A stretch of 58,817 nucleotides of DNA. Origin: an uncultured Candidatus Saccharibacteria bacterium. GTDB taxonomy: Bacteria; Patescibacteriota; Saccharimonadia; CAILAD01; BJGX01. Within the stretch, counting starts at the first letter, position 1. Each line of letters opens with the position of its first letter. The notes under the pieces are model-generated. The model was not told the origin of the DNA and ran no database searches. It saw only the letters and a list, made by a program, of their open reading frames with translations. Shown here piece after piece: positions 45,821 through 54,769 of the stretch. The stretch is from assembly GCA_964481235.1 (NCBI GenBank), contig CAYZYH010000006.1, forward strand, positions 1 to 58,817. The letters are read 5' to 3'. Position numbers and translations under genes: made by a program.

Positions 45821-46249
45821 TTACCATGTTTCTCGCTCGGCAATTAAATTTGCCCTAGCCTGCTCTTCAAATATCTTATAAAAATGGTCTGTAGAGAATA
45901 TTCTATCTCTAGACAAGAACCTATCAATAAAGGCATTACGCCCAGAGCTTTGCTGAGAAGCTGGGCCTGCTTGATGCATAGGTAGCCAATGCGATTTTCC
46001 GTCAATCACCATCTCGTAACGTGGAAACTCCAGGTCTAACCAATGATTTTCGCGCTCGAGTCGTCTTACGACTTCGTCAATTACCAACTGTGCTGCAGCA
46101 TCTACCGATGCGTCAAACACAACTCCGGTATCTACTACTCCACTATCAGTAAGTTCACGAGCTGCGCTTACTGCGGCTTCTCGCCATTGCTGCTTCAGCC
46201 TATCTGTCACTAGCGCCGTATCGGCCATCTTACTCCTTTGTGTAGGCAC
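45821..46249 (-). CDS. Hypothetical protein (142 aa)
   Basis: ORF whose stop/start (ATGA) overlaps the upstream hydrolase gene. No motifs recognised. Confidence 0.4.
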   Translation of the reverse strand: MPTQRSKMADTALVTDRLKQQWREAAVSAARELTDSGVVDTGVVFDASVDAAAQLVIDEVVRRLERENHWLDLEFPRYEMVIDGKSHWLPMHQAGPASQQSSGRNAFIDRFLSRDRIFSTDHFYKIFEEQARANLIAERETW

Positions 46250-46890
46250 TAAGTAGTATAACTGTCTTTTAAGCCATGTAAAAGCCTTGTCAAACCAATT
46301 ACTACTCCCGTAAGGTGTCCAATAACCAACATGCGATGTTGCTTAACACCTTCAACGCTCATAGTATCTACTGGTACAACCCAATCTAGGAGTGGCTTGT
46401 AGATGGTGATTAACTGCTTGTCTTGCGCTGTAAGTCTGCCCACAAACTGCTCGTCACATTCTACCACTGAGTGTAAGTAGGCAATACTCGGTCTTTTGTT
46501 TTTTCTATGTAAAGCAGTGTGTATTAGGTGGTTTCTATCACCTTGTTGCAGACGACCACTAATACAAACTAGGTTAATATCTGCGTTTGGCAGATCTCTT
46601 CGCAACTCTACAAAAACCGAGAGTGCTAAGCTTGCCCCAGCGCTTATACCTACAAGGGTTAGTTGGTTGCTCTTTGTAAGAATTTCTTTGGCTTGCAATA
46701 CAACCTTTGATCGTAAATCTGTAATGTCGCCTTTGCCATGCCAATCTACGCCAGCAAAATGAAGACCTACATTTTTACCACTAAATAACCAGGCAAGTAG
46801 CTTTTCTGGCAAACCCACGTCTGTTCTCTCTAGGCCATTAATATAGAGCATTTGCAAAAGAGAACTTGGATGATTTTTTTTCAATTGCAC
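46249..46890 (-). CDS. Alpha/beta-hydrolase fold protein (esterase/lipase-like)
   Basis: GxSxG nucleophile elbow (GISAGAS) with the downstream D/H pattern expected for the fold. Confidence 0.55.
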   Translation of the reverse strand: MQLKKNHPSSLLQMLYINGLERTDVGLPEKLLAWLFSGKNVGLHFAGVDWHGKGDITDLRSKVVLQAKEILTKSNQLTLVGISAGASLALSVFVELRRDLPNADINLVCISGRLQQGDRNHLIHTALHRKNKRPSIAYLHSVVECDEQFVGRLTAQDKQLITIYKPLLDWVVPVDTMSVEGVKQHRMLVIGHLTGVVIGLTRLLHGLKDSYTT

Positions 46891-46991
46891 TCTCTACCTC
46901 TTGGCAAATTGTAAAAGAACTAACGACACCTAAAATACCATATTGATACACATTAATCAACAAAAATAAAAACCAGAATTTTGTTCGAGCT

Positions 46992-47220
46992 AACTGGCTT
47001 ACTTCGTTCTATCGCCGGTTCGAATACAAGCAAACACTTCAATAAATAAAAACATCCCTAATGGGATGATTCTATTTACTGGCGGGCCCGACCGGATAGC
47101 GCTTGAACTTTGTTCAGACTAACCGGCCCACTTCGTTCTATCGCCGATTCGTGATCAGCAATCAGTTTTTAATAACAGCCCTAAGGGACTGTTCTCAAAA
47201 ACTGGCGGGCCCGACCGGAT
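46992..47220 (-). repeat. Two tandem ~100-nt imperfect repeat units, each ending in an exact 19-nt copy of the tRNA-Asp 3' end
   Basis: Unit A is 46992-47097 and unit B is 47121-47220. They share a similar start (AACYGGCYYACTTCGTTCTATCGCCGRTTCG), an internal palindromic hairpin (CATCCCTAATGGGATG / CAGCCCTAAGGGACTG), and the 3' segment CTGGCGGGCCCGACCGGAT. Unit B's end is the authentic tRNA-Asp 3' end. Confidence 0.7.
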
Positions 47221-47279
47221 TTGAACCGGCGATCTCCTCCGTGACAGGGAGGCGTGTTAGGCCTCTACACCACGAGCCC
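47203..47279 (-). tRNA. tRNA-Asp (anticodon GTC)
   Basis: Acceptor GGGCUCG/CGGGCCC (one G-U pair), anticodon arm CCUCC-CUGUCAC-GGAGG, T-arm CCGGUUCAAAUCCGG, discriminator G, and an encoded CCA. Confidence 0.85.
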
Positions 47280-47368
47280 AGGGTTTTGGCACAAACTAAC
47301 CTGATAATTTTACCAAATATTACCGACATTTACAATAAAACACCCCAGGTAAATACCTGAGGTGCAAA

Positions 47369-48034
47369 CTAGCACGACAAATCGTAAAAATGCCATGACT
47401 CGTTGAGGTGCGAAAAAACCTTATATTCAACAATTGAGTAGTCAAACTTTTCTATTAGCTCTTCAAACCTCTGTATATTATCGCCATAAATAGCGACATG
47501 TAGTACTCCACCAATAGCTAAGTACTGGTGTGCTTGGCTCATTAGCTCGATATGAAGCTCAAAGCCCGGGTCATTATAGGCAATATCGTTATAGTTAACT
47601 ATCGGCTCATCAAAAGATGGCAGATAAGCCACTATTGCGTCAAACTCACCTTTTACACACGTAAAGAGATTAGAGTAGTACAGTTCTAGCTCAACACCTA
47701 AATTAGTAGCATTAGTTCGGGCGCTAAGCAGTGCATTGGGCATAATGTCTACAGCCTCCACATATGTTGCTCCGGCTGCTGCAGCAATAATGCCACGCAC
47801 CCCGCAGCCACAACCAATATCTAGCACTCTTTTGCCCCTATACATCTCAATATTGCGGGGTGTTACTAGAATTGGTTCACCAAAATCTGGCCTGGGCTCA
47901 AACACACCTGGTAGAACCACCCAATCTACACCACGGTAATACACTGTGTATTCTACATTTAGTGGCATATCTATCCCCCTTTTAGACCTGGCTTGGTTGC
48001 TAAACGGTATGTTAGCGATACTCGAGGCCCACAA
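47369..48034 (-). CDS. Class I SAM-dependent methyltransferase (small-domain type; the NPPF-like motif is degenerate, YLPSF)
   Basis: Motif I VLDIGCGCGVRG, an acidic motif II (EAVD) and FDAIVAYLPSF in the position of FDLIISNPPF in RsmC/RlmG-type enzymes. GC-richer than the host. Confidence 0.7.
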   Translation of the reverse strand: MWASSIANIPFSNQARSKRGIDMPLNVEYTVYYRGVDWVVLPGVFEPRPDFGEPILVTPRNIEMYRGKRVLDIGCGCGVRGIIAAAAGATYVEAVDIMPNALLSARTNATNLGVELELYYSNLFTCVKGEFDAIVAYLPSFDEPIVNYNDIAYNDPGFELHIELMSQAHQYLAIGGVLHVAIYGDNIQRFEELIEKFDYSIVEYKVFSHLNESWHFYDLSC

Positions 48035-48606
48035 ATTGGTGGAGGTACTGAGTGCGTAGGGCGCACATCTTCATCGGTTGGGTACAAACCTGGAGCACGC
48101 ATAATGAGCTCACTGCCCGGACCTGTTTGCAAAACTCTACTAGGCACATTGTCTTCACGAGTTGAATACATTTTTAGTTCACCTGTGCCAACAATGGTAT
48201 ACGACACAATTAGGTGAATATCACTACTGTAGTCGCGGTGACGACCAATGCCGTCGTAGCGATCGCTATAGCGCTGTACGGCAACATCGTTGGGTTGCCA
48301 GGTTTGCAAGCACTTATAGCGACCGGCACTAGCTCTTATCATCTGGCCTAGTGTATCACCCAATTCTCGCATAAGCGGGTAATCTTGTCGTGTAGACTCG
48401 TCAAAATAGACCGGCGCAAATACCTCAAATCGCTGGTATACGCCTTGTTCTATGTCGAAAAACCGACTAAATTTACCGTTTAATACCTCATTTGCCAATG
48501 CTTTGGTGAAGTCTCGGCTTAGTGCTTGGGTAGTAAAAGCATAGCCACTTCTACCTGCATCTGAAATGCGCCCAGCATAATCTGGCGGTGTAGTAAATAT
48601 CTCCAT
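47971..48606 (-). CDS. AlkB-like Fe(II)/2-oxoglutarate-dependent dioxygenase
   Basis: VQRYSDRYDGIGRHRDYSSD matches INRYAPGAKLSLHQDKDE (the HxD iron ligands). PTHSV supplies the distal His, and RVSLTYR matches the RYNLTFR 2OG-binding motif. The start is set at the internal Met (MEIFTTPP), because the longer ORF overlaps the methyltransferase gene. Confidence 0.65.
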   Translation of the reverse strand: MEIFTTPPDYAGRISDAGRSGYAFTTQALSRDFTKALANEVLNGKFSRFFDIEQGVYQRFEVFAPVYFDESTRQDYPLMRELGDTLGQMIRASAGRYKCLQTWQPNDVAVQRYSDRYDGIGRHRDYSSDIHLIVSYTIVGTGELKMYSTREDNVPSRVLQTGPGSELIMRAPGLYPTDEDVRPTHSVPPPICGPRVSLTYRLATKPGLKGG

Positions 48607-49005
48607 CACGCTCCCCTTTCGAGTTTCTCTACTAAGACATACCAACAGGTTAGGTGAATTAGATAACACCTATGCCCTACACGGTCTAACACTACCTCTA
48701 CCGCATCTGCAATATCAAAATCTACACCACAACCATTGCAGGCACTCCCTACAGCCCTAGGGTGGCATTCTAGCTTAAATACACCTTCACTCTGTAGCAC
48801 TTTGAGCATCTTGGTCTCCTTTGTAAGAAGAAATGTAGTAGTCTGGCCTACTGTAGCCATGGCTAACCATATACCAACACAAAGCAATAGATGCCGGCCC
48901 AAAAACAACCCTGGGCTCTATATCGTTCGCATCCCAAGCTTCTAGCGCTTCTATAGAGTTTTTGCATATAACATACAGATTGGTCTCACACATAATGGGC
49001 TCCAA
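48606..49005 (-). pseudogene. Two overlapping small Cys-containing ORFs (72 and 100 aa) in different frames; possibly one frameshifted gene
   Basis: ORFs 48787..49005 and 48606..48908 overlap by ~120 nt in different frames within a GC-rich stretch. ECHPRAVGSACNGCG suggests a metal-binding site. Which frame is real cannot be resolved by eye. Confidence 0.25.
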
Positions 49006-49295
49006 AAATCGATTGTCAAGGTTCTCTCGGTAGCTTTAGTACTAAAAAACTGCCCGAGAAGGCAGTTTTTTAGTTAATATTAGCAATAATTACAGATACA
49101 GGCTTAAAAACTCCCTTCTAAAGCAGTGTTTTTAGCAAAATATTGAAATGACGACCAAGTAGTATGTTTTTTGTTCAGTAACATTATTTTTCTCTGTTAT
49201 ATTAATAAGCATAACAAAATCAAAAATTATTGTCAAAAAAGATACTCTACAGGTTGTTATACCAGTTACAAATGATAAAAAAGTGTTAAAAACTA

Positions 49296-49324
49296 TTGAC
49301 TTTTAGTAAATAGTTTGCTATAAT
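49296..49324 (+). promoter_or_regulatory. Consensus sigma70 promoter (TTGACT - 17 nt - TATAAT)
   Basis: An exact -35 and -10 hexamer pair with optimal spacing. No protein-coding gene follows on this strand. Confidence 0.65.
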
Positions 49325-49330
49325 ACCCCT

Positions 49331-49792
49331 AATGCTTAGTTAATAGGCAGAGAACCTCAAAAAAAACCAAGAAACTGCAAAAATTGAGAGGAGGTGCACG
49401 TGTTCGTCATTCAGAACCGTGCTACCGAGTTTTTAGATAGTTTATAGGAGCAGTTGGAGCCTCTACTAGAGCCGTTAATCTTAATTTTAAGATAATGGCT
49501 TGAAGACGCTTTTACCACCAGGCAAATCCGCCAGACCAATACATATTTGGGCTTTCGAGTCCAGGCGAGGGTCAACCTTCGTAGTGCAAGCATATGTAGA
49601 GGTGAAGGAGTTAGCGACAAAAATGTCGCTAAGGTATTAGTGCTGTAGACCAGCCCTCAGCTGTTCCGCCACTATGCAGTACATAGGATAATTAGCAATG
49701 CTAGTTATCCAACTTGTCGGCTTTTGTAGCCTTGCGAGCGTTGCTCCTTGGCTATGGGCCGGTAAACCCCACCTGATTGGTGGGGTTTTTTC
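49331..49792 (+). ncRNA. Candidate orphan transcript (~460 nt): tiny SD-preceded ORF plus a long structured region, ending at an intrinsic terminator
   Basis: The promoter above is followed by GAGAGGAGG, then 5 nt to a GTG opening a 15-codon ORF (MFVIQNRATEFLDSL, 49400-49447), then ~340 nt of GC-balanced, hairpin-rich sequence (e.g. TAGCGACAAAAATGTCGCTA), then a terminator. No substantial ORF lies on the plus strand. Confidence 0.35.
49766..49792 (+). terminator. Rho-independent terminator
   Basis: CCCCACCTGATTGGTGGGG hairpin followed by TTTTTTC. Confidence 0.75.
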
Positions 49793-49816
49793 TATTCAAA
49801 TTATGATTTTATATAG

Positions 49817-50233
49817 CTATTTAGAGTCTAGATTATAGGTCATACCACAAACAGAACCGAGGTCTATATCGGACTGCATTGCCTGCTTATAAAGATCTTC
49901 TGAGGCTACCAGCGCTAGATTGGTGCTAGAGCCGCCGATACTATCTAGGTAAAAACGTTCGCCAGACACATTGTCGAACAACTCTATGGCTTGAAGAGGC
50001 CATTGCTTGGCTACAGAGTAGGCGTGGCGTAGCTCGGCCTCGGTAATTAGCCAAGCAGTTTTTTGGTGGCTCTTAAGGCTAGCAAATGTCTCTGCTACAT
50101 TGTTGGTAATATAATAATTATTGCTTTGCAGTGCACTCTTGAGGTTGTCTAGGCTACTGTCATTTTTGTAAATAATAAGACCAGCTTCACGACTTTGAGA
50201 TTGAGTTGTTAAATAAGTATGTAAATCTTGCAT
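49817..50233 (-). CDS. Hypothetical protein (138 aa), last gene of the MoxR-VWA cluster
   Basis: ORF 24 nt downstream of the VWA gene on the same strand. No recognisable motifs. Confidence 0.45.
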   Translation of the reverse strand: MQDLHTYLTTQSQSREAGLIIYKNDSSLDNLKSALQSNNYYITNNVAETFASLKSHQKTAWLITEAELRHAYSVAKQWPLQAIELFDNVSGERFYLDSIGGSSTNLALVASEDLYKQAMQSDIDLGSVCGMTYNLDSK

Positions 50234-50257
50234 ATTAGTTATATATTATCATAAAGC

Positions 50258-52297
50258 TTAAGCCTGCTCTATAACCCTCCTCAGTACTTCTACAAGTGCG
50301 ATGGGTAGCTCAGTTACATCTTGTATTATAGAATAGTCTGGGTAGTATTCGGCTACAGACTCTGACTGTATGCCAATACTAGCTAGTTTTTGGTTGGTAT
50401 TGTTTATTATGGTATCTACTACCCTATGTAGATTGTACTCTGGCCCATTATGCCTATGGCTTTCGGCTGGTTGTCCATCAGATAGAATTACTACAATTTT
50501 TTCGGTGCCAGGTTGCTGAGCCAAGCGTTCGGAAGTTTCGGTGAGTGCCCAACCATCGTCGTTGTATCCAGCTCTACCCGGACTCCAAGATTCTTCAATC
50601 ATACCGGGCATAATCTCGCGACTTGCCCTACCGAATTGATCATTAAAACCCTTATATTTATAAAGTTCAATGTTAAAACCGTATACTTCAAAACGAATAT
50701 TTAGCTTACTTAGTACCTCAGAAAACACAATAGCACTTTTTAACGCCTCTTGTACTCTATCACCTCTCATGGACCCCGATAAATCTATTAGCAGACTAAT
50801 AGTATAGTCTTTTTGGGTAGGCAACTCTCGCCTCTCCCAGGCTTTGCTCTGTACAGCCGAAACACCTTTGGCTTTCTCAGATATACGCTTGCCTATGTTT
50901 ATGCGACGACCAGCACGATAACCGCTTTTGTAGCCATGCGAAGATCTGGCAATAAACAAGTTATTGAGATCGTTATATAGGCTATCTATGAGTGGTTTTA
51001 GCTCTTGGTAGAGTTCATTGTACTGCTCTAGCTGTATTTCTTGCTCAGTCTTTTCTGGCTCTTCTGGCTCATTGTCGGAGTCACCGTGAGCCGGATCGCC
51101 ATTTATTTCTACCTGGCCTGGTTCGCCATCTGTAGCCATTTGAATACTTAGCTTGGCCTCTAGTTGGTCGGTAATTTGTTTATCGAGATCAGCTAGAGCC
51201 TCTGTCGCCTCTTGATGTAATTGTTCTTTAACATCTTCTGGCAAGTTGGCTATAAACATTTGCAATGCTTGTAGCTGCTCTGCAGATAGGTCTGAAAGTT
51301 TGATGGGCTGGTAATAACCTTGTTCTTTGGCAATTTCGGCGGCTTGCTGTAGCATTTCTTGCATATCACTTGGTAGTTCGTTAAAGCCTTCGGGGGTATT
51401 GCCGTCTACAAGATCTTTTATCATTTTCTGTAATTGTTTGGCGGCGGCGGCATTGGCCATATCGATATCGACAAGTTTTTTAAATTCTGGCCAAATTTTG
51501 TCGGTAATAATAGCTCCACTCGCCTTGGCGTAATTATCTACCAAAGTGTTTGATCTGTCGGCTTCGTCTTTGGTAGGATATGTCCACCACATATCTTGCA
51601 GGTATGGCGCTACTCTTGCAATATAGTCTTTTATTTCTTGGGGCAGTTCTGGGGCTACCTGCATTGGTTGCCTTTGTCTATCTTGATACCAAAGACTTAT
51701 GTGTTCAAAACTAGCAAGGTCGTGCAGAGGCATAAAACCAAGTTGGTCTTGAGCCTTCTCTAGCATTTCTTGGCGCTGAGCAAGTTGTTGTTCATAGTAA
51801 ATATGCATACCTTCGTCTAACAGTCTGAAATTATCAGACAAAAAGTTATTGACCCTAGGGTCCTCTAGACCACCAAATAACACATTGCCACCTGGCTGGT
51901 GACGCATTTCTTGCACTGGCTCTACTAAACGCGATATTCGTCTGTGACTAGCTTCGTGGCCAATACTCCAGCGATTTTCTTGAGCGGGGCGTTCTAGTAG
52001 ATCTTGTAAACCTACCGCAACGTAATTTTCATTCATACTCCAATACCAATTACGGCCCGGCGCTAGTATTACCGGCATATCGAAGTCTTTGCCTATAAAA
52101 CTACTTATAACACTTAAACTTCGTAATCGTTCTTGTACTACTCTGCGTTGAGATAAGGGTAGGCTAGCCAACATAGCCTCAGAGCGTTCTTTGTCGGTTT
52201 GGTAAGTCAATACAGGGTCTAGGGCGTGACCATCTCGTACTGCACTAGCAGGCTGTGGGTCGGCTTTGGCCGCGTATACTCTTTCTGTTTCACTCAA
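50258..52297 (-). CDS. VWA-domain protein with an N-terminal HExxH metallopeptidase-like domain and an acidic coiled-coil linker (DUF2201_N/VWA-like architecture)
   Basis: HEASH with a downstream Glu (GGLEDP) ~30 aa on, suggesting a gluzincin site near residue 115. A long Glu/Gln/Asp-rich helical region follows. A C-terminal VWA with a MIDAS motif DLSGSM is present, and later SDGQP. It sits immediately downstream of the MoxR-type ATPase. Confidence 0.75.
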   Translation of the reverse strand: MSETERVYAAKADPQPASAVRDGHALDPVLTYQTDKERSEAMLASLPLSQRRVVQERLRSLSVISSFIGKDFDMPVILAPGRNWYWSMNENYVAVGLQDLLERPAQENRWSIGHEASHRRISRLVEPVQEMRHQPGGNVLFGGLEDPRVNNFLSDNFRLLDEGMHIYYEQQLAQRQEMLEKAQDQLGFMPLHDLASFEHISLWYQDRQRQPMQVAPELPQEIKDYIARVAPYLQDMWWTYPTKDEADRSNTLVDNYAKASGAIITDKIWPEFKKLVDIDMANAAAAKQLQKMIKDLVDGNTPEGFNELPSDMQEMLQQAAEIAKEQGYYQPIKLSDLSAEQLQALQMFIANLPEDVKEQLHQEATEALADLDKQITDQLEAKLSIQMATDGEPGQVEINGDPAHGDSDNEPEEPEKTEQEIQLEQYNELYQELKPLIDSLYNDLNNLFIARSSHGYKSGYRAGRRINIGKRISEKAKGVSAVQSKAWERRELPTQKDYTISLLIDLSGSMRGDRVQEALKSAIVFSEVLSKLNIRFEVYGFNIELYKYKGFNDQFGRASREIMPGMIEESWSPGRAGYNDDGWALTETSERLAQQPGTEKIVVILSDGQPAESHRHNGPEYNLHRVVDTIINNTNQKLASIGIQSESVAEYYPDYSIIQDVTELPIALVEVLRRVIEQA

Positions 52298-52330
52298 AAC
52301 AACTATTACCTATCATTATCTAACACCTCT

Positions 52331-54769
52331 CTATTTGTATCCTCTATTAGGTCGGGGGGGCTTGGGTTTCTTTTTTTGACTTGCGGTAGGACCCCAGCCT
52401 GGTGAGTGAGTAGGTGGCGGAGGTGGGTTTGGAGTAGGTGGCCTTGGTGGAGGTTCATCTTCAGTTTCTCCTTCGCCATAATAATCTTCCCAGTCAGTTT
52501 CAGAATCATCTGTTGCTGACGAGGTGGATGGTGGTGGCGATATTGGCGAACCAGCCGGCGCAAAAGCCGAACCAGCAATTGGGGTGCCAATAGGTGATGA
52601 TGATCCGGATGATACACCGCTAGCGGGTGAGGAGGTAGTACCTAAACTTTCTACAGCACTTAGAGCCTGCAACACCCAGTTATTACCTATAGACATGGCG
52701 TAGTAATCTGGTGTACTAGCAAAGTGCTCTTCGCGCTCTTGCCAGGCTCTGAGTGAAAAACAACCACTCATACTCTTAGCAAATGTAGCATTAGAAACAC
52801 GCCCTTTGAGTACTTCTCTTATTTCCCAAGCCCAGCCGGTATCTAAACCAGCCAAAGATATAGCAAGTGCCTCTTCATAGCCATCTTCTATAAACTGATT
52901 TCTTACCTCGCTAGCTACATTAGAGTCGTCGCCAGAAATTGCCCAAGCTATAGCCATGGTCTTTTCGTTTTCAGTAAGACCAAATAAATTAGCATCTCGT
53001 TCTAGTATATCCAACTTTACTGCTGGGGTGTTTGGGTATTTAATATAGCGCATGCCCAGCGCCGTAGCACTCGGTTTTTTACCAGCTTCTTTTAAAAACA
53101 TCATTAAACCAACAAGTTCTGGTGTCTGGCTCAGACCAGCAAGAGAAGTAATAATAGCATTTATGTCTTGTTCATCAAAAGAGTCTATCTTTGATTTTAT
53201 TTCTACTATAAACAGGTCTTCACCACCATAGTGTGCTATCGCATCGTGCCCAACTAGGCCGTTAAACCCGGCGGAGTGTTTACCGGTAAGTAGTAGTGAA
53301 TTAATTTCTGATTCTGCGAAGGTACCCATAACTCCTGCCAATGATTTTCCAAAGGCTTTAGTATTGCCAGGCTTATCCTTGGCAACCTGTCGCATGGGCC
53401 TAGCTGTGAGAGAGTTGTTACCAGCAAGGGCGGTAAGTATTAGTGGGTCTTTGGCTGGCCCAGCTGGCCCAATAAATACTTGCAACTCTGCGAGGCGCCT
53501 GGCAATATAGTCGGGGTCACTTAAGGTTTCTGGGTCGTTGGGTAACTCTGCTGTGCTACCACTCACACCGCGCCGACGAGAGTCGCCAGTATCTTCTACC
53601 TTAATAGTGTGTATTTTGCCTATCATTTCCTGACGCTCTGTTGGATCGGCCAATTTATTGGCATAGTAATACTCGAGCGCTCTATGCACAGTAGCATTGA
53701 GATCGCCATTATAAAAATGACAAATAAACTCGGCTACTCTATTTATTTCTTCACGGTCGTCATAACTAATTTTTTGAGGTTGGTCGCGACCTATCTCGCT
53801 TGCTTTGGCTTGGCTTTTTACCATATAGTGAAAAATACGAATTTGCTCAGCCATATCAGCCATACCTGGTATAGCACCTAGTTCTTCACGAGTAAGAGTG
53901 CGTTCTCCGCTGTGTAAATATTTACTCTCATCTGGCTCGGCAACCTCGGTGCCTTTTTTGAGCCCAAAGGTAGCATCTACATAACCCTCTACCGACTCTT
54001 CAGGTAGCTCTTCGGGTAGTTTAATATACACCCATCTTCTAAACTGGGCAGGGTCTAAAGGGTGACGCTCTGAATATTCACTACCACTACGACTAGGGGC
54101 ATTACCAAGCGCAACAATACTAAGATTATCACGCACTACCTTAAGACGTTTAGAAGCATCTTCGGTTACACTAACCATGCCAGAGTCTTCGTAGGCATCG
54201 ATAACTTCGTGTAGACGTATAAGAATATCTGGAGTGGCGGCATTGAACTCGTCTACCATTAAGAGTACTTTGTGGCCTTTTATGGCCTCTTCTATAGCTG
54301 CTGTAACCGGACCATTGGCAAAAACATACTCAGGGTCTTCGGTAGAATGACGGTCTGGGTTAGGTGCATACTGACCCATAAGCGATGAGGTATCGTCACT
54401 ACCCTTCATATTGATGTAGTGAACCGACCAACCAAGTTCGTGGGCCATTTTACGTACTGCCGAACTCTTACCTACTGACGTACCAGCTTCTACAAATACA
54501 GGCTGATGCAAAGCAAATGCCGTAGCCAAGTCGCGTTGCAATTCTTGACTAAACTCATCTTCTACATAGCCCTCTTTCTTAAGCGGAACCTGCTCTTCTT
54601 CACCAGTACCTTTGGGTAAGCGCACTCCCAAATATTCTACATATTCGGGCTCAGCAACAGCTGCCAACTCTACTAGGTGTGGAATATCTACAGACAATGG
54701 TTCACTACCTACTGTCGTAGGCTCATCTGCTAGATTTGACCCACTATCACTATGTGCTGGTTCTGGCAC
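52331..54769 (-). CDS. MoxR/AAA_5-type AAA+ ATPase, unusually large (812 aa), with a long C-terminal extension and a Pro-rich tail
   Basis: Walker A EAGTSVGKSS and Walker B VLLMVDEFNAA in the first third. Then ~450 aa of unassigned sequence ending in PPPRPPTPNPPPPPTHSPGWGPTASQKKKPKPPRPN. Confidence 0.75.
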   Translation of the reverse strand: MPEPAHSDSGSNLADEPTTVGSEPLSVDIPHLVELAAVAEPEYVEYLGVRLPKGTGEEEQVPLKKEGYVEDEFSQELQRDLATAFALHQPVFVEAGTSVGKSSAVRKMAHELGWSVHYINMKGSDDTSSLMGQYAPNPDRHSTEDPEYVFANGPVTAAIEEAIKGHKVLLMVDEFNAATPDILIRLHEVIDAYEDSGMVSVTEDASKRLKVVRDNLSIVALGNAPSRSGSEYSERHPLDPAQFRRWVYIKLPEELPEESVEGYVDATFGLKKGTEVAEPDESKYLHSGERTLTREELGAIPGMADMAEQIRIFHYMVKSQAKASEIGRDQPQKISYDDREEINRVAEFICHFYNGDLNATVHRALEYYYANKLADPTERQEMIGKIHTIKVEDTGDSRRRGVSGSTAELPNDPETLSDPDYIARRLAELQVFIGPAGPAKDPLILTALAGNNSLTARPMRQVAKDKPGNTKAFGKSLAGVMGTFAESEINSLLLTGKHSAGFNGLVGHDAIAHYGGEDLFIVEIKSKIDSFDEQDINAIITSLAGLSQTPELVGLMMFLKEAGKKPSATALGMRYIKYPNTPAVKLDILERDANLFGLTENEKTMAIAWAISGDDSNVASEVRNQFIEDGYEEALAISLAGLDTGWAWEIREVLKGRVSNATFAKSMSGCFSLRAWQEREEHFASTPDYYAMSIGNNWVLQALSAVESLGTTSSPASGVSSGSSSPIGTPIAGSAFAPAGSPISPPPSTSSATDDSETDWEDYYGEGETEDEPPPRPPTPNPPPPPTHSPGWGPTASQKKKPKPPRPNRGYK

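Follow-up and report, generated by a model that had tools for sequence, protein, structure and literature searches.

A Patescibacteria three-gene locus encoding a long MoxR-class AAA+ ATPase, a CobT-like adaptor with a zincin-like domain and a small partner protein

The question raised by this locus is what kind of system is built from three adjacent genes of a Candidatus Saccharibacteria bacterium, which lie in a 58,817-nt stretch of DNA (the window, meaning throughout the whole stretch that was analysed). An earlier note had proposed an uncharacterised three-component MoxR-class AAA+/VWA system consisting of an 812-aa AAA_5 ATPase, a 679-aa HExxH/VWA protein and a 138-aa protein, and this proposal was supported. 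An ORF check of the window confirmed that all three are present and co-directional on the minus strand, with gaps of 33 nt between the ATPase and VWA genes and 24 nt between the VWA and small genes, at the following positions:

52331..54769, minus strand: ATPase ORF, 812 aa, GTG start; CobS/midasin-like AAA+ protein (AAA_5), whole ORF
50258..52297, minus strand: VWA protein ORF, 679 aa, TTG start; CobT-like adaptor, whole ORF
49817..50233, minus strand: small-protein ORF, 138 aa, ATG start; third subunit
49764..49788, no strand assigned: 10-bp GC-rich hairpin, 29 nt past the small-gene stop codon

The hairpin has a T-run on the plus strand, while the minus strand has TTT only; it is probably the end of the transcription unit and may act as the terminator of the trio operon. 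No transmembrane segments were found in any of the three proteins. The flanks of the trio consist of cellular genes whose order is conserved in distant relatives, with no phage structural or replication genes around the window copy, and a tRNA-Asp lies 2.5 kb away. The neighbours in the window lineage are a PpiC/SurA-like foldase and a bPH_2 protein, a synteny that is kept down to relatives of 38% identity and would be compatible with a housekeeping function as well. The GC-richer segment that had been remarked on is real but modest (0.43-0.45 at the trio vs 0.35-0.40 mid-window), and it does not point to a recent transfer: one relative is collinear with the locus at 83-85% nucleotide identity, and another, at 38-40% identity, is syntenic with it. 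A conceivable link to the vault gene was not sustained either, since the MVP homolog lies 45 kb from the trio in the window and none of the 84 related loci retrieved (L001-L084) contains it.

The trio family is restricted to Patescibacteria (CPR): all 97 species-level matches came from MAGs of this group. The VWA protein was found in 82 loci and the ATPase in 76, and the small protein travels with the ATPase, being present in 76-77 of the 82 loci, with its gene co-duplicated with that of the ATPase. Since about 80 independent Patescibacteria loci carry all three genes side by side, the features of the trio are not due to chance. The family is nevertheless sporadic rather than universal in CPR: of 1.84 billion representatives, those belonging to it form 617 clusters at 50% identity; three of its loci are filed in IMG/VR.

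The AAA_5 and VWA assignments of the earlier note were borne out on profile search. In the ATPase, Pfam gave an AAA_5 match (E=2e-8), and the protein can be divided as follows:

53570..54652, minus strand: conserved AAA+ module (alpha/beta core and lid), residues ~40-400, delimited by column conservation
54464-54487, minus strand: Walker A, AGTSVGKS, residues 95-102, lysine kept in 68/68 relatives
54248-54265, minus strand: Walker B, VDE, residues 172-174, DE kept in 68/68 relatives
52655..53569, minus strand: lineage-specific C-terminal domain, residues ~401-705, with 3-5 motif copies
52334..52654, minus strand: low-complexity tail, residues ~706-812, rich in Ser and Pro and basic at its end, delimited by composition

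The AAA+ module is the sole part of the ATPase that is conserved family-wide (column conservation 0.5-0.75). With both Walker motifs in place, and with sensor-1 N223 and R245 likewise kept in 68/68 relatives, the module is catalytically complete. Searched against solved structures, the family profile matched midasin (1e-29), CobS (1.5e-4) and NorQ (4e-4), and these three are the closest solved relatives of the ATPase.

The C-terminal half of the protein is of a different nature. As had been noted from the window, the last ~410 aa are without assignment, giving no Pfam match even at E<=5, and the poly-Pro basic tail is genuine, the last 53 residues comprising 32% Pro and 15% K+R; this tail shows indel differences between the window and its 84%-identity relative. 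Upstream of it, the motif 'a.SLaG.Ds..AW..R' occurs in 3-5 copies at ~28-aa spacing, in a domain that the window ATPase shares only with P0002-P0005, L001 and L003 and that gave no hhalign match to the other C-termini of the family. The repeats suggest a helical-repeat ligand-binding domain, an assignment that has no profile match behind it.

In most relatives this position is occupied by something else. Clustering across the 82 loci gave a diversity-generating retroelement (DGR) RT (41 loci) and bAvd (24 loci) as the only recurrent neighbours. A template repeat (TR) of 115-125 nt corresponds to the final ~120 nt of the ATPase ORF, the variable region (VR), and in at least 30 related loci the TR/VR mismatches fall almost only at TR adenines (for example 15/15, 17/17, 21/21 and 19/19). 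[quoted passage not shown] In most family members the adjacent DGR rewrites the lectin-like C-terminal domain of the ATPase. The window lineage, in contrast, yielded no RT, Avd or CLec at E<=1, the CLec HMM did not match the window ATPase, and the characteristics of a DGR target that the relatives have are missing from it; a ~300-aa unrelated repeat domain and the Ser/Pro-rich tail stand in place of the diversified domain. This family context, with the ATPase as DGR target in most relatives, is invisible from the window alone.

The 679-aa protein is a full-length CobT homolog, made up of a zincin N-domain, an acidic linker, a shaft and a VWA domain:

51422..52210, minus strand: zincin-like N-domain, residues 30-292, from the model and motif conservation
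51944-51958, minus strand: HExxH motif (HEASH, residues 114-118), kept in 76/77 relatives
51860-51865, minus strand: E145/D146, 27 residues downstream of HEASH, E145 kept in 77/77 relatives
51023..51421, minus strand: acidic Gln-rich linker, residues ~293-425, length-variable in the family
50813..51022, minus strand: basic pre-VWA segment, residues ~426-495, 'shaft' equivalent by profile alignment
50261..50812, minus strand: VWA domain with the full MIDAS site, residues 496-679
50771-50785, minus strand: MIDAS DxSxS (D505-L-S507-G-S509), completed by N579 and D607

The strongest Pfam match of this protein was CobT_C (E=3.6e-19), with weak VWA matches, and its PDB profile matches were CobT (2.6e-23), the midasin MIDAS domain (1.4e-11) and NorD (2.4e-5). 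The MIDAS residues, kept in 71-77 of 77 relatives, match D422/S424/S426/N518/D546 of CobT position for position. Ahead of the VWA domain, the basic segment aligns to CobT 344-461 and midasin MIDAS 25-162 (E=2e-11), contains the invariant residues Y426, F448, G459, G463 and R490, and corresponds to the beta0-alpha0'-alpha0 'shaft' of CobT_C and to the N-terminal extension of the midasin MIDAS domain. The shaft of CobT_C contacts the CobS ring, and the shaft role proposed for the adaptor is taken from that CobST preprint (bioRxiv 10.64898/2026.07.21.739949). Further upstream, the linker (23% D+E and 13% Q over residues 285-425, in indel-rich alignment columns) corresponds to the ~90-aa disordered linker of CobT and to the D/E-rich region of midasin.

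The N-domain was modelled with a pLDDT of 91.8. The prediction gave fold matches to M48/minigluzincin structures and has the features of a zincin, namely a helix bearing HExxH, a following helix that supplies the third-ligand Glu, and a beta-sheet alongside. It is homologous to the N-domain of phage CobT-like proteins (hhalign 92.6%, E=4.7e-7), which in turn match genuine CobT over the full length (E=2e-29), so that by way of these viral intermediates the adaptor N-domain is homologous to that of genuine CobT, for which a solved structure is M48C-like and bound to the CobS lid (bioRxiv 10.64898/2026.07.21.739949). The fusion of zincin and VWA domains, which had been taken as peculiar to the window version, is instead the ancestral CobT architecture, common to viral cobT-like genes and degenerate in genuine CobT. 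Fold and motif conservation suggest that the adaptor may have peptidase activity; alternatively, the HExxH...E site could have a metal-binding or structural role, as in the degenerate CobT N-domain.

The 138-aa protein had no match in NCBIfam, PADLOC or PHROGs and nothing above chance in Pfam, where a lone weak match to Birna_VP4 (E=0.086) fell far below the cut-off. An alignment of 41 sequences contained no invariant residue and no GK[ST] of a Walker A motif, and there was no profile similarity to the partner ATPase. The predicted structure nevertheless has the AAA+ alpha/beta core fold feature, but the other marks of an AAA+ ATPase, Walker A/B and an arginine finger, are lacking, and a length of 138 aa leaves no room for a lid subdomain. 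The prediction is thus of a degenerate alpha/beta core of AAA+ type that has neither lid nor P-loop.

Several named families were tried as identities for the trio and rejected. There were no RavA, ViaA, CbbQ_C or NorD family matches, NorQ and NorD being distant PDB matches only (4e-4 and 2.4e-5); the trio is thus not a housekeeping RavA/ViaA, CbbQ/O or NorQ/D module, and the objection of this kind that the earlier note had raised against its own proposal falls away. DUF2201/DUF2201_N (PF09967/PF13203), another suggested membership, gave no Pfam match in 22 members at E<=1.

We favour, with moderate confidence, the reading that the trio is most likely a soluble cytoplasmic three-subunit AAA+ machine of the CobS-CobT/midasin/NorQ-NorD class, which captures and remodels a ligand and has a proteolytic adaptor. 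If the structures of CobSTN, midasin and NorQD are a guide, the ATPase would form a hexameric ring, the shaft and VWA domain of the adaptor would dock on the pore face of this ring, the adaptor N-domain would bind an ATPase lid, and the MIDAS site would grip an acidic residue of the client. The C-terminal domain of the ATPase, hypervariable in DGR-bearing relatives and fixed in the window lineage, would pick the client, and ATP hydrolysis would pull on it or remodel it once bound. The intact zincin site, as a putative peptidase, might then cleave the client or an effector, while the pseudo-AAA small subunit might cap the ring or regulate its assembly.

The alternative that survives best, though we consider it unlikely, is a non-proteolytic housekeeping module for chaperoning or maturation, serving one fixed client and using the HExxH domain only for docking or metal binding, on the model of cobalt insertion by CobST, Fe_B insertion by NorQD, Rubisco activation by CbbQO or removal of ribosome-assembly factors by midasin. 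It agrees with such machines being the closest solved relatives, with the CobT N-domain docking on the CobS lid and CobN, with the trio having no defence-family match in PADLOC, and with the window locus lacking a DGR and keeping its place beside the foldase and bPH_2 genes. One fixed client is, however, hard to reconcile with the fact that in most family members a DGR hypermutates the part of the ATPase that recognises the client. This hypermutation speaks for clients that change fast, for instance proteins of phages or of host cells, and against a housekeeping substrate. Moreover, the HExxH...E residues are under strong purifying selection (76-77/77), whereas they are lost in CobT, where the domain is purely a docking one, and a sporadic family with 97 species matches in CPR also speaks against such a role.

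A bolder version, which we regard as quite improbable, is that the family constitutes a programmable protein-targeting protease, in which an AAA+ unfoldase with a DGR-rewritten C-terminal receptor works with a CobT-like adaptor and its intact zincin. If this were true, Patescibacteria would own an anticipatory, antibody-like system against fast-evolving phage or host proteins, which would be remodelled or degraded, and the Saccharibacteria version in the window would be a 'frozen' derivative, locked on one target by its fixed repeat domain. CobT and the viral cobT genes would then descend from an active AAA-coupled metalloprotease.

The three-subunit machine favoured here also has to be set against the published MoxR-vWA ternary conflict systems (VMAP/iSTAND/FtsH/beta-propeller, Kaur et al. 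2020), in which a threshold switch frees vWA-fused effectors. The resemblance lies in the combination of a MoxR-class ATPase with a vWA protein and one more conserved protein. A DGR link is also on record for about 80% of the VMAP systems of cyanobacteria and gammaproteobacteria (PMC7159879), and in one subtype described there the third component is an inactive NTPase (iSTAND). Membership, which the earlier note had entertained, did not hold up and is very improbable, as the third component is by size and predicted fold a 138-aa AAA-like core rather than a tripartite VMAP, iSTAND, FtsH or propeller protein, and in each of the 22 members aligned the protein stops with its VWA domain, which leaves no place for the variable C-terminal effector domains (lacking in 22/22), the extra domain being N-terminal and of CobT type. 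In addition, the DGR diversifies the ATPase and not the vWA protein, PADLOC gave no match, and the family is found in CPR only, a group that Kaur et al. 2020 omitted from their statistical tests on account of its unknown multicellularity status.

Nor is there much of a chance that the trio is a phage- or prophage-derived cobST auxiliary cluster on an element integrated beside the tRNA-Asp. Its VWA half matches phage and phage-plasmid genes annotated 'CobT / porphyrin biosynthesis', its N-domain is homologous to those of phage CobT-like proteins, GC is slightly raised, the tRNA-Asp is nearby (2.5 kb) and three family loci are in IMG/VR; yet no phage structural or replication genes accompany it and its cellular flanks are in conserved order. 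Phage clusters consist of two genes, with a ~400-aa ATPase carrying a CbbQ_C lid, beside a sigma factor and DnaE, and the small subunit, long ATPase and DGR were found in 0/77 phage cobT-type loci. A viral cobST pair was likewise rejected as an identity for the trio, given an 812-aa ATPase without a CbbQ_C match, a third gene and cellular flanks.

Weakest, and already very unlikely to the point of being barely conceivable, is an aerobic cobaltochelatase motor CobS/CobT with CobN encoded elsewhere: the best named matches are CobT_C, TIGR01651 (CobT) and TIGR01650 (CobS), the architecture is that of CobT, and an AAA_5 ATPase with intact Walker motifs is paired with a MIDAS-bearing CobT_C-type VWA protein, but the scores are far under the NCBIfam equivalog cut-offs (38.6 vs 759 bits for TIGR01651, 16.7 vs 558 for TIGR01650), neither the flank gene lists nor the recurrent-neighbour clustering of the 82 loci showed a CobN or cobalamin gene, most cofactor biosynthesis is in general said to be missing from Patescibacteria, the ATPase has 2.5 times the length of CobS, and DGR diversification would be senseless for a chelatase.

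Compared with known systems, the trio is similar to CobS-CobT (CobSTN; PDB 9uka and related structures) in pairing an AAA_5 ATPase with an adaptor that has an M48-like N-domain, a disordered acidic linker, a helical shaft and a VWA domain with the D-S-S-N-D MIDAS. Homology is detected by sequence in the C-terminal half of the adaptor (E=2.6e-23) and through viral intermediates in the N-domain, where CobT has DSMAL...EQ and the adaptor keeps HExxH...ED. The differences are the third, pseudo-AAA subunit, the ATPase, which is 2.5 times longer than CobS and has a 400-aa C-terminal recognition domain, and the DGR-linked relatives. The cobST pairs of tailed phages, archaeal viruses and phage-plasmids (PMC8651126), annotated as CobT, 'porphyrin biosynthesis' or 'peptidase', resemble the trio in that an AAA_5 partner accompanies a CobT-like protein, 580-750 aa long, in which a zincin-like domain with HE[AVS][GA]H at the N-terminus is followed by a linker and a CobT_C VWA domain. 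They differ in being two-gene systems without a small pseudo-AAA gene or DGR, in the ATPase, which at ~400 aa has a CbbQ_C lid but lacks a recognition domain, and in their viral replication-module context beside a sigma factor and DnaE, where their function is putative.

With the M48 peptidases and minigluzincins (HtpX, BepA, Ste24, jannalysin and selecase), the adaptor shares a predicted core fold comprising a three-stranded sheet, an HExxH helix and a next helix with an invariant Glu. It has no sequence-level similarity to them, and is instead soluble, fused to the linker and VWA domain, and extended by a helical subdomain of ~150 aa. Midasin (Mdn1/Rea1) is the best solved match for the ATPase and a strong one for the pre-VWA segment and MIDAS domain, and it likewise has an AAA ring, some catalytically inactive AAA modules, an acidic D/E-rich linker and a client-gripping MIDAS domain that docks back on the ring; however, it is one eukaryotic polypeptide of ~4,700-4,900 aa with six fused AAA modules and no zincin, whereas the trio consists of three proteins.

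Finally, most members of the trio family are CPR AAA-CLec DGR targets of the kind reported by Paul et al. 2017, in so far as that work is represented in the paper citing it (PMC10907252), with TR, Avd and RT downstream of the ATPase; the window copy differs in having neither DGR nor CLec. The searchable literature, in which Paul et al. 2017 is known via the citing paper, yielded no description of the two partner genes. That a hypervariable sensor may feed a MoxR-vWA transducer is, as a general idea, already published (PMC7159879, PMC10907252), but the family differs from VMAP-type systems in carrying the VR on the ATPase, in its CobT-type vWA partner with an intact zincin, and in the predicted mini-AAA nature of its third subunit.

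The three minus-strand ORFs that the earlier note had claimed within 49817-54769 were found at exactly those positions, separated by intergenic gaps of 33 and 24 nt:

52331-54769, minus strand: ATPase, 812 aa
50258-52297, minus strand: VWA protein (adaptor), 679 aa
49817-50233, minus strand: small protein, 138 aa

The GC content of this segment was raised as described, if modestly, and composition agreed with the proposed acidic linker of the VWA protein and Ser/Pro-rich basic tail of the ATPase. Composition gave no transmembrane segments in any of the three proteins, which are thus predicted to be soluble. A GC-rich hairpin begins 29 nt past the stop codon of the small gene, the last in the trio. 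The same gene order (ATPase, VWA, small) was found in the related loci L003 (on the same contig as L006) and L001, at 84% and 38-40% identity, respectively, and in all three cases a bPH_2 gene and a PpiC/SurA-like gene precede the trio. The window also encodes tmRNA, RNase P, tRNAs, EF-P and ClpB. The syntenic flanks identify it as a fragment of a Saccharibacteria chromosome, and the trio locus is vertically stable in this Saccharibacteria lineage.

Downstream of the small gene lies an AT-rich stretch without ORFs (48977-49472), which is 83-93% identical to L003 and at least as conserved in that comparison as the flanking coding DNA (~82%); L001 has a comparable ORF-free gap after the trio. 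This stretch may represent a non-coding RNA or a regulatory element, and Rfam returned only sub-threshold hairpin matches for it. Further along, a tRNA-Asp gene (47203-47279, minus strand) is situated inside a GC-richer block (46000-49000). On one side it is flanked by a 221-aa MTS-type methyltransferase ORF (47369-48034), which is adjoined by a 232-aa ORF without Pfam match (47971-48669), and on the other by two ORFs of 213 aa (no Pfam match) and 142 aa. The block 47187-52446 is collinear with L003.

The 812-aa ATPase has a catalytically complete AAA+ module: it matched AAA_5 in Pfam (E = 2e-8), and the Walker A Lys, the Walker B DE, the sensor-1 Asn and R245 are invariant in its relatives (n = 68). 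When the family profile was compared with solved structures, the midasin AAA modules scored best (1e-29), followed by CobS (1.5e-4) and NorQ (4e-4). Family-wide conservation is limited to residues ~40-400, and every family ATPase extends a further 200-560 aa (typically 270-320) beyond this part. The C-terminus of the window type is common to the homologs P0002-P0005 only and contains an 'a.SLaG.Ds..AW..R' motif 3-5 times, with a spacing of 28 aa for three of the copies. Pfam gave nothing for this domain at E <= 5, and it may be a helical-repeat binding domain. Comparison by hhalign with the C-termini of the other family ATPases gave no match, nor did the HMM of the lectin-like variable domain (CLec), and homology to the CLec-type C-termini was rejected.

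The 679-aa protein matched CobT_C (3.6e-19) and, weakly, VWA in Pfam. Its C-terminal half (from residue ~420) is homologous to genuine CobT, the cobaltochelatase subunit (profile comparison, 2.6e-23), and also matched the MIDAS domain of midasin together with the extension N-terminal to it (1.4e-11) as well as NorD. The MIDAS residues D505, S507, S509 and D607 are kept in 77 of 77 relatives and N579 in 71, and the N-terminal HExxH (residues 114-118) is kept in 76 and E145 in all 77. The sole dead zincin site belongs to L066 (1213-3177), where QIxxQ replaces HExxH and ET replaces ED. No sequence match for the N-domain (residues 30-292) was obtained in Pfam or in the PDB, CobT itself not coming up in the PDB profile search, and its members gave only sub-threshold 'metallo-protease' matches in PHROGs. 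In the structure predicted from a trimmed alignment of 22 sequences (pLDDT 91.8), a helix, a three-stranded sheet and a helical bundle follow one another, with the HExxH on the first helix past the sheet and the invariant Glu on a later helix.

In CobT, an M48C-like N-domain bound to the CobS lid subdomain is joined by a disordered linker of ~90 aa to a C-domain consisting of a helical 'shaft' and a VWA domain with the MIDAS residues D-S-S-N-D, as described for the CobSTN cryo-EM structures (2026 preprint, bioRxiv 10.64898/2026.07.21.739949); the 679-aa protein has this architecture, domain for domain. The N-domains could be connected through phage proteins. Alignment of the CPR (Patescibacteria) N-domain with a phage CobT-like N-domain profile built from 62 sequences gave a probability of 92.6% in hhalign (E = 4.7e-7, 167 columns) with both motifs in register, while a single Rhizobium phage CobT-like sequence gave a weak result (4.8%). 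Nearly all full-length phage CobT-like proteins (580-750 aa; L090-L166 from IMG/VR and L086 2291-4834) have HE[AVS][GA]H at residues 60-95 and a downstream N.[IL]ED.R motif. A phage CobT-like protein in turn aligned with genuine CobT over its full length (E = 2e-29), the phage 'DHEAGH' standing opposite 'DSMALRQARH' and 'LEDVRIE' opposite 'VEQARVE'; DSMAL and VEQAR are found at the aligned positions in PDB 9uka chain G. According to this alignment, the metal-binding histidines were lost in genuine CobT and kept in the phage and CPR proteins.

The 679-aa protein is thus homologous to CobT over its full length and has a zincin site that looks live, and the zincin-VWA fusion represents the ancestral ground plan of CobT. 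The earlier note had taken the fusion for a special trait of the window version, which does not hold given the N-domain homology via the phage proteins. The N-domain of the cobalt-chelatase CobT, for its part, is suggested to be a dead protease.

The 138-aa protein gave no match in NCBIfam, PADLOC or PHROGs and only a chance-level one in Pfam (E = 0.086). No invariant residue is shared by 41 small-protein sequences, and the 86 database homologs are all stand-alone proteins of ~142 aa. It lacks a P-loop and is too short to accommodate a lid, and a sequence duplicate of the ATPase core was rejected, as no profile similarity to the partner ATPase was found. In L027 (9220-14362), a unit of small gene and ATPase gene is tandemly duplicated behind one VWA gene; the same was found in L082 (9188-13964), but with one copy broken into fragments. 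This co-duplication ties the small subunit functionally to the ATPase, and the small protein is predicted to be a degenerate (pseudo-) AAA-like third subunit that co-varies with it.

Word-indexed protein searches retrieved proteins of Patescibacteria MAGs only, in 10 clusters for the ATPase and 22 for the VWA protein, and a scan of one genome per species gave 97 matches, every one in CPR lineages (Saccharibacteria, Paceibacteria/Parcubacteria, Microgenomates, Berkelbacteria, Peribacteria, Doudnabacteria and others), a few records carrying obviously wrong taxonomic labels. An exhaustive search of 1.84 billion proteins with the N-domain profile yielded 617 representatives at 50% identity; nearly all of the best 150 of these are ~650-850 aa long and share the architecture. 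The three genes co-occur in 82 loci, most commonly in the order VWA, small, ATPase, and the small-protein HMM matched 77 of the 82, most misses being at contig ends.

Clustering of all flanking ORFs in the 82 loci revealed only two recurrent neighbours, a ~334-aa reverse transcriptase (RT; 41 loci) and a ~128-aa protein (24 loci), which precomputed Pfam matches assign to RVT_1 and bAvd, respectively. The canonical arrangement starts with VWA, small and ATPase, continues with 0-2 stand-alone proteins of ~330 aa that are paralogous to the ATPase C-terminus, and ends with Avd (opposite strand) and RT. In at least 30 loci, the final ~120 nt of the ATPase ORF are 80-92% identical to a template repeat (TR) of 115-125 nt, which is situated upstream of the RT. 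The mismatches between TR and variable region (VR) fall almost exclusively on template adenines (15/15, 17/17, 21/21, 19/19 and 18/18 in examples), which is the signature of a diversity-generating retroelement (DGR). Many loci have a second VR, matching the same TR, in a stand-alone paralog of the ATPase C-terminus, so that one DGR serves two targets. CLec-like stand-alone proteins of 280-365 aa lie between ATPase and Avd in many loci (e.g. L010 9161-10258, L013 5042-5899 and L080 9158-10003). The HMM of the lectin-like C-terminus ('...YTWTNRRSSGGRLVLVG...DDLGVRSSR') matched 57 of 69 full-length family ATPases.

Patescibacteria have an unusual abundance of DGRs. No similarity to RT, Avd or CLec was seen in the window, L001 or L003 at E <= 1. 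The 900 nt without ORFs downstream of the trio might have held the remains of a DGR, but this was rejected, as neither RT nor Avd gave a match there at E <= 1. An RNase H / RVT_3-like protein of 136 aa (23964-24374, minus strand), with RNase P RNA, BacA and HIT genes as neighbours, is an ordinary RNase HI-type protein and no DGR component. The window holds a natural DGR-less derivative of a DGR-target family: the swappable C-terminal module of the ATPase, putatively a recognition domain, is hypervariable in most lineages and fixed here. In CPR, the architecture most often targeted by DGRs is a CLec domain joined to an AAA ATPase (Paul et al. 2017, as cited in PMC10907252), and a DGR link is frequent among the MoxR-vWA ternary systems of cyanobacteria and proteobacteria (PMC10907252, PMC7159879). 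DGR-linked NTPase sensors and MoxR/CobS-type AAA+ ATPases with a VWA adaptor are both known kinds of system, of which the trio is a CPR-specific form.

By analogy with the CobSTN structures and with what is generally known of midasin and NorQD, the ATPase would form a ring, on which the shaft and VWA domain of the adaptor would dock, with the N-domain on a lid. The MIDAS site would capture an acidic residue of a client, on which ATP would drive pulling. Judging from its conservation, the zincin site may be catalytic and provide the output, either client cleavage or effector activation. A hypermutated recognition domain in the relatives suggests fast-changing ligands and thereby a role in conflict or host interaction; for the window variant, the ligand would be a fixed one. 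The main alternative is a housekeeping chaperone without proteolysis, to which the stable synteny beside a foldase in the window lineage lends support. It is disfavoured by the DGR link, by the sporadic distribution, and by the retention of a catalytic motif that genuine CobT has lost. Should the proteolytic reading be wrong, the cluster would still be a clean new MoxR-VWA chaperone branch, specific to an understudied phylum.

Several other identities do not apply. The MoxR-VWA ternary conflict systems of Kaur et al. (PMC7159879), which the earlier note had brought into play, differ from the trio, whether of VMAP, iSTAND or FtsH type: the third component is a different one, there is no effector C-terminal to the vWA, and the VR lies on the ATPase. 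A cobaltochelatase was rejected since CobS/CobT scores were far under the equivalog cut-offs and the neighbourhoods examined contained no CobN or cobalamin genes. Family searches also set aside RavA/ViaA, CbbQ/O and NorQ/D, as well as DUF2201, for which a membership had been suggested and Pfam gave no match. PADLOC matched none of the trio proteins, and PHROGs only their CobS/CobT-like parts. An MVP (vault) homolog of 862 aa, unusual for a Saccharibacteria genome, is encoded in the GC-richest part of the window (1973-4561, minus strand; GC ~0.49-0.50; MVP_shoulder 2e-27, Vault_3, Band_7); the speculative vault link with the trio is rejected, as this gene lies 45 kb off and is missing from all 84 related loci (L001-L084). 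The earlier reading of the cluster as an uncharacterised MoxR-VWA metallopeptidase system was largely right in kind, but overlooked the CobT ground plan and the nature of the family as a DGR target system.

Peptidase is a frequent annotation of viral cobT (PMC8651126). Its sequence motifs suggest that the product may be an active metalloprotease instead of a subunit of a chelatase, and the widespread viral 'cobT' genes may not serve cobalamin synthesis at all. In phages and phage-plasmids (Rhizobium phage L086 and Methylobacterium plasmid pAMS5a, L085), CobT-like and MoxR/CobS-like genes form a conserved block together with a sigma-factor-like gene and DnaE, and these neighbours suggest a role in replication or transcription take-over, not in cobalamin synthesis. 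The CPR type made up only 3 of 80 IMG/VR matches, each with the full trio and a DGR; these contigs (L087, L088 and L089) may be CPR chromosome fragments mis-called viral, or genuine CPR phages or prophages.

The results place the CPR AAA-CLec DGR target, for which no molecular partners are known to have been proposed before, in a three-gene machine of a CobS/midasin-like motor, a CobT-like VWA adaptor whose metalloprotease motif is still complete, and a pseudo-AAA protein as third subunit. The intact-zincin CobT-like adaptor and the pseudo-AAA subunit were not found described in the searchable literature, the text of Paul et al. 2017 aside. Adaptor docking on the ring, MIDAS-mediated client capture and zinc-dependent cleavage are testable ideas, for which the DGR-less variant of the window offers a simpler version for study. 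The trio differs from the viral cobST pair, which was rejected as an identity: the latter combines a ~400-aa ATPase bearing a CbbQ_C lid with neighbouring sigma-factor and DnaE genes, and has neither small gene nor DGR. The N-domain of Mg-chelatase subunit D is an inactive AAA domain, and midasin and dynein contain inactive modules; it is these inactive AAA parts that the separate inactive AAA-like subunit of the trio recalls.
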